A stretch of DNA of 64,000 nt, taken from the IMG/VR virus record IMGVR_UViG_3300022848_000777, positions 64,001 to 128,000 of that record; one strand, written 5' to 3'. The translations under genes and the position numbers were made by a program. The notes beneath the pieces are model-generated. The model was not told where the DNA came from, ran no database searches, and saw only the letters and a list, made by a program, of their open reading frames with translations. Each line of letters begins with the position of its first letter. Position 1 is the first letter of the stretch. This DNA is from a virus. Shown here piece after piece: positions 49,503 through 56,683 of the stretch.

Positions 49503-49683
49503 GTTAGGCACAGTTTATTATGGACTACGAAGAAAGAGCAGAACACGAAATTGAACTGATAGAACAAGACGAAACATTAAGTGAAAAGAAAAAGTCTCAA
49601 GCAATAGAAGATGTTATACAAGAACTCCGAGAAGAACTCGAAGACCATAAAAACGGTAGGTAATAATTTTTATTGTGCCTAAC
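49503..49683 (+). mobile_element. cassette C1 carrying a 47-aa acidic ORF (49520-49663)
   Basis: GTTAGGCACAGT ... ATTGTGCCTAAC. Confidence 0.8.
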
Positions 49684-49697
49684 ATAAAATAACAGAT

Positions 49698-49982
49698 ATG
49701 AAAAATAGTAATTTAGCATTATACGGAATACAGTCAAATATGGTAGGAGCAGAAACCTACGCACAAGCTGGCGACTTTGAGTTGTCTACGAAAATACATA
49801 TCGTTGATGTCTTATTAGCCAACGGAAGTCATTTACATATAGAATGTAATACTGAGGCACAAGCTAGAAGTATCTTGTCGACTTTATACTACTACTCTGT
49901 TAACGGTAATGATAACAACGTTGTAGAATTTGACTTTGACTTTACATTAAACTACTTGCCGATTGAACTTGCACTCAAATAA
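49698..49982 (+). CDS. hypothetical protein
   Basis: 94-aa ORF. Confidence 0.6.
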   Translation: MKNSNLALYGIQSNMVGAETYAQAGDFELSTKIHIVDVLLANGSHLHIECNTEAQARSILSTLYYYSVNGNDNNVVEFDFDFTLNYLPIELALK

Positions 49983-50363
49983 ACAAATAAACACAATAAA
50001 TTTTTAAGATATGGAAGAATTGCTATTAAAGAATCAATTAGTTATAATGGAAGCTATGGTTAAGAATAGATTCAATCAAGACAAAGATGGATTGATAAAA
50101 CAGATTAAAATAATAAAAGAATTCTTAATTAATATTGAACAAATTTGAATTATGGGTAAAATGACAAAAATGACAAAAATTGATGCGGCAATAAGAGATA
50201 CCACATTATATTTTAGGAGAGCAGAAGAGAGTATAATGTTGCTAATGAGAGAGAAGAAAGTTTTACAAGAAAGGCTTAGTGCTCTTGAAGAGATAAAAGA
50301 TAGCGACCAATATGAATAATTTTTTTGTAACTTTAACGGATTGAATAATAACAAAACTTAATT

Positions 50364-50771
50364 ATGAAATTACACGAAATTATTGAAGTACACGACAAAC
50401 CTTATTTTAGAAAAATGAGAGTAGAGAGTGGATTTATGTACAATTTTTGGGATGTAGAAAAGGATGACTACCAACAAGAATGGACTTTTGTGCCATACTC
50501 AAGCGAACTGGTTAAAAATTTCGAACACCGCATAGATACAACGGTAGGACTTTGGGCAACCGATGGGCCTGATTTAATCACAACTAAAAATACGAGAGAA
50601 GAATCAATAAAATGGTGGGATAGTTTAGGTTCAAACCCATTACTAGGGTTAATTGAAAAAGGTGAATTAACTACTAAGTATTTTGGCCCTGATAGAATCC
50701 CTGAATTATTAACTGGAAGAGAAATTGAAAAAATGTACGTATCTGAAAATGAAGATGACGTATATGTGTAG
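50364..50771 (+). CDS. hypothetical protein
   Basis: 135-aa ORF. Confidence 0.6.
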   Translation: MKLHEIIEVHDKPYFRKMRVESGFMYNFWDVEKDDYQQEWTFVPYSSELVKNFEHRIDTTVGLWATDGPDLITTKNTREESIKWWDSLGSNPLLGLIEKGELTTKYFGPDRIPELLTGREIEKMYVSENEDDVYV

Positions 50772-50799
50772 TTTTTACCCGACTAAATAAAACCGAATT

Positions 50800-51108
50800 A
50801 TGGAAGAATTATTAAAAAAAATAGGGCAGTTGCAGTATGAAATCAGTATATTAGATATTGATGAAGAGACATTAACAGGTGTTGATATTAGAACAGAAGA
50901 ATTAAAAGAGATGATAATCCAAGGGCAAGCATTACCTATAGATAGTGTTAACGTTTCGTTTGAATACGAAATGTTTATAAATGATAAAGGAACACCATTT
51001 GAAATGAACACTTGGATACCAATATCCAACGATAGAATTAAGGATGTTAGCAGGATAGATGAATACATTGAAAACGGTTTATTAAGAAAAATAGTTAATA
51101 AACGCTAA
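50800..51108 (+). CDS. fusion ORF reading into cassette C2 (50947-51109)
   Basis: GTTAACGTTT at 50947 pairs with AAACGCTAAC at 51100; stop lies inside TAAC. Confidence 0.65.
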   Translation: MEELLKKIGQLQYEISILDIDEETLTGVDIRTEELKEMIIQGQALPIDSVNVSFEYEMFINDKGTPFEMNTWIPISNDRIKDVSRIDEYIENGLLRKIVNKR

Positions 51109-51294
51109 CGATTGGGCTATGAATTTTAAAAAATACGGTTATGGAAACTAAATATTATATAGCGATTGGACTTTTATTAATATCGATGGTGCTAACTTTT
51201 TTTGTACCGCTTTGGTTTGAATTAAGAGAGCACAAAAAGTGGATGAAAAGGAACGATTTTTAATTTTTACCCGACTAAATAAATAACTAAACAA

Positions 51295-51567
51295 ATGGTA
51301 GCAATAGAGTATTTTGATAGATATAGTAGCACAGCAAATGAGCCCGATATAATGGGTAGATGGGCAAGAACGGCCATCTATAAAAACATCAGAATAGCTT
51401 GGATAAGTAGAATAGAAAATAAAGATGAAATTATTTTTAGTGTTTCTTGCCATTTCCCAACAATGCAGAACGATACAGCAAACGAACATAAACTATGTTT
51501 TAGTTTGGATGAAGCAAAAGAGTTTGTACAAGATCGCTGGGAATGGTTCTTAAATGAGGTTTCTTAA
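51295..51567 (+). CDS. hypothetical protein
   Basis: 90-aa ORF ending at a left half-site (TAAAC GTTAAGGCTATG). Confidence 0.65.
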   Translation: MVAIEYFDRYSSTANEPDIMGRWARTAIYKNIRIAWISRIENKDEIIFSVSCHFPTMQNDTANEHKLCFSLDEAKEFVQDRWEWFLNEVS

Positions 51568-51642
51568 ACGTTAAGGCTATGTGTAGTGCCAAAATTTTAA
51601 AATAAAATTAGGTAGTTCAACATATTATTCGTATATTTACAA

Positions 51643-51980
51643 GATGTATAGAAGTCGGCAGCGAATCGACTAATACATTACAGACATTCTTGTACGTCCA
51701 ATAGCCTTTGTGCTGTATCGCTCGGAATGTTTAATTGAAAGCCGCTAGAGAGGGTTCTTAGAAAGCGGCACGGGTTTGCGAAAGGAACGCCCACTAAGAA
51801 GGTTTATTACACAACCTATAGAGTTCTGAGCATCGGATTGTAATTAAACGAAGCACCTAATAACGAAGGCTCAATGAAGGTTAAGCATATCGTTTAAAGG
51901 TATCGCCCTACGTAGTTTCGCAACGAACTTCTTAGGGATTGCTATACCTTTAACTCAGGTCTAAATCAGGTATAGCATAG
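51643..51980 (+). ncRNA. candidate structured non-coding RNA
   Basis: Promoter (TTAGG 51608, TATATTTA 51632), no ORF of 60 aa or more, raised GC and at least seven helices. Confidence 0.6.
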
Positions 51981-52129
51981 TATTTAAAGTGTACACTAAC
52001 TAGTTTTTCTTTAGATTGGGTGGTAATTGTAAAAAATTACAACAATAAACTTGTGTAGTATAATTTAATTGATTACATTGGTCAAAGATAAGGGGGAAAC
52101 TTAACCCAATAGTGAATTAAATTAAATAA

Positions 52130-52189
52130 AACGGTTTGGCTATGATGTCGGTTTTTATTTTTCTTAAAAACTGCATTATAGGTGGTGTT
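52130..52189 (+). other. attC-like site S1
   Basis: AAC..CTATGATG..GTTTTT / AAAAAC..CATTATAG..GTT. Confidence 0.8.
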
Positions 52190-52242
52190 ATACCCTGTTT
52201 TTGAGCGTTGGATAAAATAATTTACAGAAAAGTGTATTTTTA

Positions 52243-55190: not shown

Positions 55191-55219
55191 TTATACCCAA
55201 CCCCGCAAAAACCCAAACA

Positions 55220-55408
55220 ATGATAGACATCGACTTAATATCAAACATAGTAATAGGTGGCATAGACCAAGAAGACTTTCCTGACTTCTGCGATTCCTAC
55301 ATAGAATCAGGAACCTACAAAAGCAGAGATCTAACAGATATCGAGTTAGATGAGATAAACGAAGACTCGGCTTTTGTTTACGAGAAAACTATTGAATCTA
55401 TGTATTAG
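55220..55408 (+). CDS. small acidic phage protein (GID..DFPDFCD)
   Basis: 62-aa ORF ending just before site S4. Confidence 0.65.
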   Translation: MIDIDLISNIVIGGIDQEDFPDFCDSYIESGTYKSRDLTDIELDEINEDSAFVYEKTIESMY

Positions 55409-55410
55409 CT

Positions 55411-55462
55411 AATGACTAAACTATGTTTTGGTTGTTTTTACAACTTAAATATAGATTTTGTT
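55411..55462 (+). other. attC-like site S4
   Basis: AAT..CTATGTTT..GTTGT / ACAAC..AAATATAG..GTT. Confidence 0.75.
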
Positions 55463-55500
55463 AGCATTAGTACGGATTATTAACTAAAAAAATAAATAGA

Positions 55501-55752
55501 ATGAAAAAATTCAACATTAATGATTATATCTATATCCAGATAACAGAATTAGGATGGAAACACTTAGAGAAAACAGTAGGTAGTGAATACATAAAACATT
55601 GTATTAACGCTGACGGGTATAAAAAAGAGATAGATAACGAAACGTGGCATAGACTACAAGCGCATGACGTGTTTAGTTTATTACCTATGGGAACAGGATT
55701 TAATTTATTATACAATCCAAACGTAATGTTTGATGGGGATGCGTTAAAGTAG
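55501..55752 (+). CDS. protein of cassette C8 (55460-55765)
   Basis: GTTAGCATTAGTAC / GTATTAATGCTAAC termini. Confidence 0.75.
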   Translation: MKKFNINDYIYIQITELGWKHLEKTVGSEYIKHCINADGYKKEIDNETWHRLQAHDVFSLLPMGTGFNLLYNPNVMFDGDALK

Positions 55753-55762
55753 TATTAATGCT

Positions 55763-55816
55763 AACGTTAAGGGTATGGTGTCGTTTGCTTTTCGCAAATG
55801 CACTATAACCAGTGTT
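55763..55816 (+). other. attC-like site S5
   Basis: AAC..TATGGTG..GTTTGC / GCAAAT..CACTATA..GTT. Confidence 0.85.
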
Positions 55817-55855
55817 GTGCATAGTACGGATTATTAAAAACTAAAATTAAATAGA

Positions 55856-56599
55856 ATGGAAATAAACAAAATATATAATGAAAATTGCCTTGATACAATG
55901 GCGAAAATGGAAGATAACTTTATTGACTTAATAGTTACATCACCACCTTATTTTAATGCTAAAGAATATTCACAATATGATAGCGTTTCAGAATATATGA
56001 GACAAATGAAAGATATTTTCTTAGAAACTGAAAGGGTGATTAAAGAGGGTAGGATGTGTGTTATAAATATTAGCCCTGTACTTGTTGCTAGGGAAAAAAG
56101 AAGTAAACAAAGCTATAGAATACCATTACCTTATTATTTTGTGCCTATGATGGAGGAAATAGGCTTTGAGTTTTTAGAGGACATTATATGGGAAAAGCCA
56201 GAAGGTGCTGCTGCAAATAGAAACGGTGGTTTTTTTAGGAGTAGAAAACCATTAGCATACAAGCCTAATATAGTTACAGAATATATATTAGTATTTAAGA
56301 AAAAGTCAAATTTATTAATAGATAAGTATTTAAAAAACAATAGCCTTGTTAGTGATGGTTATGAAAGGAGTAATATTTGGAAAATACAACCACAAACGAA
56401 AAGTAAGCGCCCAGCACCTTTCCCTGATGAAATTGCTGACAAATTAATAAAATACTATTCGTATGAAAATGATTTAGTTTATGACCCGTTTATGGGAAGT
56501 GGAACAACTGCAAAGATGGCTAAACTAAATAATAGAGATTTCATAGGTAGTGAAATGGTTGAGGATTACTGTGTAATTGCAAATGAACGATTAAAATAG
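55856..56599 (+). CDS. beta-class N4-cytosine/N6-adenine DNA methyltransferase (cassette C9, 55814-56612)
   Basis: TSPPY followed by DPFMGSGTT; GTTGTGCATAGTAC / GTATTATGCACAAC termini. Confidence 0.92.
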   Translation: MEINKIYNENCLDTMAKMEDNFIDLIVTSPPYFNAKEYSQYDSVSEYMRQMKDIFLETERVIKEGRMCVINISPVLVAREKRSKQSYRIPLPYYFVPMMEEIGFEFLEDIIWEKPEGAAANRNGGFFRSRKPLAYKPNIVTEYILVFKKKSNLLIDKYLKNNSLVSDGYERSNIWKIQPQTKSKRPAPFPDEIADKLIKYYSYENDLVYDPFMGSGTTAKMAKLNNRDFIGSEMVEDYCVIANERLK

Positions 56600-56609
56600 T
56601 ATTATGCAC

Positions 56610-56654
56610 AACACAAGGCTAAACTGTCGTTTTCAATACAGTTTAGTTAATGTT
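56610..56654 (+). other. attC-like site S6
   Basis: AAC..GCTAAACTGT / ACAGTTTAGT..GTT. Confidence 0.85.
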
Positions 56655-56683
56655 ATCTTTTGTTAATAAGTAAACTAAAAATT

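Follow-up and report, generated by a model that had tools for sequence, protein, structure and literature searches.

Which strand of a folded recombination site is used, and by what mark could a recombinase tell it from its complement? This question is raised by an array of small genes at 49.5–57.3 kb of the stretch of phage DNA analysed here (the window; 64,000 nucleotides (nt), positions 64,001 to 128,000 of the IMG/VR virus record IMGVR_UViG_3300022848_000777). The record comprises 174,750 nt, is about 90% complete, and its sequence occurs in salt-lake metagenomes; none of the sequencing runs listed for it is an RNA run. The array consists of single-gene cassettes bounded by GTT...AAC termini and hairpins, and the two termini of each cassette are complementary to each other. 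A sequence model of the sites gave good matches only within 49.5–57.3 kb of the window, all of them on the + strand. An earlier sequence-only reading had pointed to a conserved G.T mispair at position 11 of the termini, regarded it as a recognition determinant of the folded coding strand, and had taken it to imply opposite strand choice or an RNA intermediate. Having followed the feature through homologous sites, we consider it likely that these are attC-like sites of an integron-like system of Bacteroidota and their phages, in which one strand folds, a T is read in each of two arms, and a partner of this T other than A marks the strand. The mispair is real, and its two more striking implications are unsupported. 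The sites and cassettes concerned are the following.

49503–49683, + strand: cassette C1, self-complementary termini, G49513 opposite T49673, 47-aa open reading frame (ORF) on +
50947–51109, + strand: cassette C2, C.T at position 11, G displaced to position 12, one A.C at position 5
51106–51135, + strand: left half-site composed of AAC, spacer and inner arm, no hairpin partner next to it
52130–52189, + strand: hairpin site of C3, inner stem with two G.T, 5′ arm with one bulge
52187–52659, + strand: cassette C3, G52197 opposite T52649
52657–52743, + strand: hairpin site of C4, two G.T
52741–52937, + strand: cassette C4, G52751 opposite T52927, followed by a left half-site
53096–53279, + strand: cassette C5, G53106 opposite T53269, core mutated to AAT
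53277–53360, + strand: hairpin site of C6, three G.T
53358–53598, + strand: cassette C6, G53368 opposite T53588, followed by a left half-site
53762–53952, + strand: worn cassette C7, G53772 opposite T53939, AAT core, pairing read by eye
55411–55462, + strand: hairpin site of C8, core AAT, two G.T
55460–55765, + strand: cassette C8, G55470 opposite T55755, 83-aa ORF on +
55763–55816, + strand: hairpin site of C9, two G.T, one bulge in the 5′ arm
55814–56612, + strand: cassette C9, G55824 opposite T56602, gene at 55856–56599
56610–56654, + strand: last hairpin site, inner stem with two G.T at its base
56652–56662, + strand: 5′ terminus with G11 at 56662, matching 3′ terminus not found

In all seven cassettes for which it had been described (C1, C3, C4, C5, C6, C8 and C9), G11 indeed stands opposite T, while positions 4–10 differ among the cassettes and are Watson–Crick paired except at one position in C5 and one in C6. 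The displaced G of C2 was also confirmed. G11 had further been placed at 53762 and 56652; it is present in both termini, but these are the first bases of the termini, and the G itself lies at 53772 and 56662. The 3′ terminus of C7 carries a 3-nt insertion at 53946–53948. The six hairpins contain 13 G.T and no C.A pairs on the + strand, as had been claimed; the + strand does have one A.C, in the terminus of C2. When the arms of five hairpins were aligned without regard to G.T, we counted 11 G.T against no C.A (p ~0.001 versus a composition ratio of 1.13); the sixth adds the two at its base. Folding both strands of the reconstructed circular junctions with DNA parameters gave the lower energy for the + strand in five out of five cases, by 1.6–6.8 kcal/mol. 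The energy model itself rewards G.T, and the independent evidence is provided by the pair counts.

To follow the feature beyond the window we used a cassette detector which counts Watson–Crick pairs only and takes the polarity of a site from its spacer asymmetry, and which is blind to G.T. The folding strand defined by this asymmetry is called F in the following; F is the + strand in the window. The site family occurs almost exclusively in Bacteroidota genomes and is also found in phages of Polaribacter, Cellulophaga, Maribacter and Tenacibaculum. Because of this near restriction to Bacteroidota and their phages, the host of the window phage is probably a Bacteroidota species.

A total of 353 cassettes was collected (121 viral, 160 bacterial and 72 from a replicate viral set). 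On the AAC side of F, position 11 is T in 340 of them (96%), and the conservation seen in the window thus holds in the larger alignments. The partner of the 340 T residues is G in 245, T in 55, C in 32 and A in 8 cases, i.e., something other than A in 332. The three sets agree: G.T, T.T, C.T and A.T were counted 75, 25, 9 and 5 times in the viral set, 119, 17, 17 and 2 times in the bacterial set, and 51, 13, 6 and 1 times in the replicate viral set, and A.C on F was absent from all three. At positions 4 and 6–9, T has A as its partner in 433 of 439 cases; at position 11 this holds for 7 of 269. Since T11 is nearly invariant, its partner is mostly G, T or C, and the inner stems are likewise biased toward G.T, the rule is T opposite not-A, with G preferred. 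Position 11 hence behaves as if selected, as the proposed recognition determinant should, although wobble geometry is not strictly required, T.T or C.T taking its place in a quarter of the sites.

The bias in the inner stems amounts to 296 G.T against 23 C.A in viruses and 341 against 18 in bacteria, where base composition predicts ratios of 1.13 and 1.06. The strand bias noticed in the window is therefore upheld by the tally over homologous sites. The same numbers bear on the idea that the feature is an artefact of a G-rich phage coding strand or of small numbers. The whole phage genome is G>C skewed on the + strand (0.09–0.21), and 113 of its 116 long ORFs lie on this G-rich strand. However, a composition ratio of about 1.1 does not account for 13:0 in the window or for the homologue counts, and the bias is equally present on the non-coding strand of bacterial arrays. 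We rejected compositional skew as the cause of the bias, and the chance that the feature is an artefact is practically negligible.

The position of the mispair becomes clear from the anatomy of the folded site. Counted from the cut, the site has two 11-bp arms, an outer one (positions 2–12) and an inner one (R6–R16), separated by an asymmetric spacer of 6 nt on the 3′ arm and 8–9 nt on the 5′ arm. Toward their far ends both arms carry an A followed by a T, with frequencies of 0.79 and 0.96 in the outer and 0.62 and 0.84 in the inner arm, and the far-end T of each arm faces a G in most sites. In the outer arm, position 11 makes up base pair ten. The inner arm has a mirror G.T, likewise at base pair ten, and in each arm an A comes before it. 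A third G.T is present at R10 in about half of the sites. F folds with a lower energy than its complement in 262 of 281 junctions.

Such a difference in energy could be all that is needed, with G.T pairs stabilizing the folding strand and destabilizing its complement and no base being read. This has been proposed for classical attC sites, where the bottom strands contain 1.24 G:T as compared with 0.39 in the top strands and have a folding energy 2.12 kcal/mol below theirs (PMC5027507). Stability alone would not, however, tie the bias to one position, and yet T11 is invariant in 96% of the cassettes amid freely covarying neighbors. The more stable A–T pair is avoided there (8 of 340), T.T and C.T do not make the stem more stable, and the inner arm repeats the motif in mirror image. 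We regard a stability effect without base reading as unlikely, although it is the strongest of the alternatives.

The direction of the genes relative to F distinguishes phages from bacteria. In viral cassettes the genes lie on F in 129 of 133 cases (73:3 and, in the replicate set, 56:1), whereas in bacterial cassettes they lie opposite F in 122 of 132, with 10 on F. Counted per locus, the gene is on F in 36:1 viral versus 5:42 bacterial loci (Fisher p 4e-17, the loci being not fully independent). The few bacterial exceptions, mostly short contigs of metagenome bins, may be phage DNA. The G.T strand follows the site and not the gene. As the genes are on F in phages and on the other strand in bacteria, F is independent of transcription. 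The + strand of the window is built to fold, as had been supposed, but in bacterial arrays it is the non-coding strand that has this property.

According to an RNA version of the same idea the transcript would be the folded substrate, or an RNA intermediate would carry the cassette, and G.U would be selected in RNA. This would fit F being the coding strand in phages, RNA folding likewise favors F, and an RNA step at the birth of cassettes is possible for the phage pool. In the bacterial arrays, though, it is the non-coding strand that carries the G.T and folds (42 of 47 loci), and the coding strand shows A.C at position 11 in 89 cases. The hairpin loops are also of the DNA type. C–GNA–G triloops, which are very stable in DNA, close 62 hairpins on F but only 8 on the complement, and RNA-type loops are unbiased (GNRA 10 on F and 11 on the complement, UUCG none). 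Finally, the adjacent enzyme is a tyrosine DNA recombinase. An RNA substrate or intermediate is accordingly quite improbable, and this implication of the sequence-only reading was not borne out.

The point of crossover was mapped from the ends of homology between related cassettes. In near-identical cassette copies the hairpin upstream with respect to F, i.e., on the GTT side, is kept (similarity about 0.9–1.0) and the other hairpin is changed (six bacterial families). Homology ends at the AAC of the F strand in 299 versus 9 cases in bacteria and at 20 versus 6 site ends in viruses, the six representing three events. Within the window, the homology of C3 to copies in two other phages (L030 and L044) stops at its AAC at about 52661, and other salt-lake contigs match the hairpin site of C4 from its AAC onward with different upstream termini. 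These breakpoints place the crossover in the 5′ arm of F, at its AAC, the hairpin traveling with the cassette on its GTT side. The classical integrase IntI cleaves the AAC of the folded attC bottom strand, which is the strand richer in G:T (PMC5027507). Since the crossover and the G:T excess both fall on F, F can be regarded by these sequence marks as the equivalent of the classical bottom strand. Opposite strand choice, as had been suggested, was seen neither in bacteria nor in phages: the choice of strand conforms to the classical one, and what is inverted is the gene within the phage cassette. Inverted genes and a classical crossover geometry suffice, without opposite strand choice or an RNA substrate.

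Could the sites then simply be attC sites of the ordinary kind, used by a classical IntI on their – strand, with the 5′-arm bulges of the + strand mirroring canonical extrahelical bases? Three window hairpins have a single-base bulge in the 5′ arm, the AAC...GTT cores and the gene direction would appear canonical, and one family member was called an attC site by HattCI (PMC9892861). The bulges are, however, not conserved and are evenly distributed: 192 viral hairpins have 43 in the 5′ arm and 42 in the 3′ arm, each in about a fifth of the sites. On the arm opposite the AAC, where classical attC sites have conserved extrahelical bases, we found none. The breakpoints lie at the AAC of F, the neighboring recombinases lack the IntI domain as judged from their sequences, and the family member P12002L_attC1 yielded no IntI1 recombinants (PMC9892861). 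We therefore think it very improbable that these are ordinary attC sites.

Recombinase genes are located at the head of the bacterial arrays, co-oriented with the cassette genes. The encoded proteins are IntI-like and XerA-like, with XerA as the best match. The Bacteroidota recombinases score 157–217 bits against TIGR02249, below its cut-off of 265, and the region of the IntI-specific insertion spans 19 residues where VchIntIA has 62 (43 shorter), so that the domain is missing. The recombinase fold matched both XerA and VchIntIA and is uninformative on the reading of the T. In the assembled record of the window phage (~90% complete) no tyrosine recombinase (PF00589) was found, and the phage probably uses the recombinase of its host. 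A word-seeded search detected no recombinase in viral contigs, unlike a profile search of 35 array-bearing virus records, two of which (L277 and L278) carry a close relative. Both have a complete system, in which an array whose genes lie on the folding strand is followed by an attI-like junction and a short recombinase gene in the same direction (L277:2601–7638, 268 aa; L278:2311–5908). The phage recombinases lie directly behind the arrays, are preceded by a short shared attI-like motif and are 39% identical to a chromosomal copy. With this arrangement new cassettes would enter at the end far from an upstream promoter.

Predicted attI-like junctions are located about 30 nt from the stop codons of three bacterial recombinases and just upstream of the two phage recombinase genes; none was identified in the window. 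T11 is present in all five junctions, beside sequence without an evident hairpin. Classical attI is a duplex. In duplex DNA the T11 of such a junction would face A, which fits a reading of the T rather than of the wobble. The chromosomal recombinases possess an extra N-terminal alpha/beta domain (L145:14521–15651, residues 1–76), which is missing from the L277 phage copy; no named Pfam family matched it, and by eye only it recalls a HARP-type domain.

Compared with classical integron attC sites (class 1 integrons, Vibrio VCR) the system shares cassette arrays, AAC...GTT cores, a folding strand that is crossed over at the AAC of its 5′ arm and a hairpin that moves with the cassette. As in the classical sites, the folding strand shows a G:T bias, a purine skew and GAA-type loops (PMC5027507), but the G:T bias is much stronger here and is fixed in position. 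Also unlike in classical sites, the outer stem has 11–14 bp, its position 11 is fixed as T.non-A with a mirror counterpart in the inner arm, conserved extrahelical bases are missing, the spacer asymmetry is 2–3 nt, and the recombinase lacks the IntI-specific domain. The phage genes lie on the folding strand, whereas bacterial arrays keep their genes on the non-folding (top) strand. The site works like an integron attC site, but is set apart from this class by the enzyme, the extrahelical bases and, in phages, the gene direction.

Clusters of attC sites lacking integron integrases (CALINs) have been reported in lytic phages including Polaribacter phage P12002L (Qi et al. 2023, PMC9892861). Like these integrase-less phage clusters, the arrays described here are rich in DNA methyltransferases; the gene of C9, for instance, encodes an N6/N4 DNA methyltransferase (PF01555). 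P12002L_attC1 belongs to the site family of the window and was, when cloned as an attC site, the one site not recombined by IntI1 (PMC9892861). Judging from the GAA loop of the aadA7 control, the strand delivered as the bottom strand of this site appears to be its G.T strand. The authors treated the sites as ordinary attC sites and noted only "divergent directions"; the gene inversion, the rule at position 11 and the recombinase are not described (PMC9892861). Their second site, P12002L_attC2 (L214:7200–7270, KR136259), was predicted on the strand opposite to the polarity of the site family, and the published oligonucleotide departs from the genome after GTT.

The enzyme and the arms also resemble the XerC/XerD/XerA–dif systems: the best match of the recombinase is XerA, and two 11-bp arms are present in the folded site together with a spacer of 6 nt on one of the strands. 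For the outer arm the consensus is AT-N6-TAA, apparently similar to the XerD arm of Escherichia coli dif. In contrast to the single, fixed, double-stranded 28-bp dif site, there are many hairpin sites in gene arrays, the arms arise by folding, and positions 4–10 vary freely and covary. In reverse integrons of Spirochaetota the integrase is reversed relative to classical integrons (10.1101/2022.02.06.479319), similar to the bacterial arrays here in which the recombinase is co-oriented with the cassettes; those enzymes, however, are counted as IntI. We found no published description of gene inversion inside cassettes, nor of the system as a whole in the literature searched, most subscription journals lying outside its coverage.

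Taken together we favor the following model, in which T is read in the two arms. As ssDNA (single-stranded DNA), F would form a hairpin whose two 11-bp arms flank an asymmetric spacer, and the tyrosine recombinase would cut between AA and C on the 5′ arm of F. Because of this position of the cut the cassette unit would consist of the hairpin, the GTT terminus, the gene and the AAC terminus. Classical integrases discriminate the strands of a folded site by means of extrahelical bases and a dedicated domain. As the recombinase here lacks the IntI domain that reads extrahelical bases, it would most likely read the T in each arm in their place. A G, T or C opposite this T would leave the complementary hairpin without a T at that place and hence unrecognized, and G would be preferred since the stem retains its stability with a G.T. 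Phage cassettes carry the gene in the reverse direction, which makes F the coding strand. Conservation, polarity, gene inversion, breakpoint-mapped crossover, arm symmetry and the missing domain are the directly supported parts of this model; ssDNA recombination by the enzyme, T read-out and strand discrimination we infer.

Several points weigh against the model. The seed patterns were derived from the sites of the window and related sequences were counted repeatedly, so that the cassette counts overstate independence. One viral breakpoint is a clean break exactly at GTT, and in some copies an identical hairpin precedes different 5′ termini; hairpins are, by these two observations, at times exchanged or lost. 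The joint of an excised circle was not seen in four contig sets, contigs showing presence only. The link between recombinase and site rests on their adjacency, and the purely thermodynamic role of G.T discussed above, though we doubt it, would do without any reading of the T.

No gene was found that is common to clearly phage-type and clearly chromosomal-type cassettes, although the sample is small, and this suggests that the two form separate pools. A wider proposal would combine the code of T opposite not-A in each arm with a pool of the phages' own, born with the gene on the folding strand, possibly through an RNA step at birth. We put it forward tentatively, with somewhat less than even confidence. 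If true, two mirror-image pools on one site family would provide a direct handle on cassette creation, and the same sites with reversed genes in phages in any case bear on the question of the origin of gene cassettes. As conserved extrahelical bases and the IntI domain are both lacking and the arrays are nevertheless of one polarity, strand choice must be solved otherwise in this system. Sites of this family are common both in the chromosomes of Bacteroidota and in phages, and the system provides phages with small genes, DNA methyltransferases among them. Integron searches based on profiles may miss it, because the recombinase lies below the profile cut-off for integron integrases.

A location of the folding strand on the lagging-strand template (after PMC5371416) was considered as a general rule and is unsupported, since the bacterial arrays are mixed. 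In the genomes G005, G006 (2.18 Mb), G015 and G004, F lies on the G-rich strand; in G001 (2.24 and 4.43 Mb) and G007 it lies on the C-rich strand, as it does, weakly, in G014. The skew of the phage is confounded with transcription.

Several arrays (L071, L145, L079, L136 and L137) contain repeated cassettes of 320–360 nt with no clear ORF, several per array and with 80–92% identity. In the window, left half-sites without a hairpin follow several cassettes (51106–51135, 51567–51590, 52934–52960, 53595–53620, 53949–53975 and 57250–57270) and may be what is left of simple insertion targets. A reading frame begins within one such half-site, at 52940, and continues into the next cassette. Identical short leaders are present behind the 5′ termini of unrelated cassettes (50772–50792 equals 51263–51283, and 55470–55485 equals 55824–55839), as if a common 5′ module had been reused. 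The array also includes an ORF-free stretch of higher GC content with a promoter-like start (51608–51980). Promoter-like direct repeats of two families, five copies of 97 nt and five of 81 nt, are located at 44800–47760, with more copies at 60950 and 62766. Immediately upstream of the array lies a gene for a MoxR-like AAA ATPase (47918–49243), and a large protein encoded at 20932–23046 looks like the vWA partner of such an ATPase.

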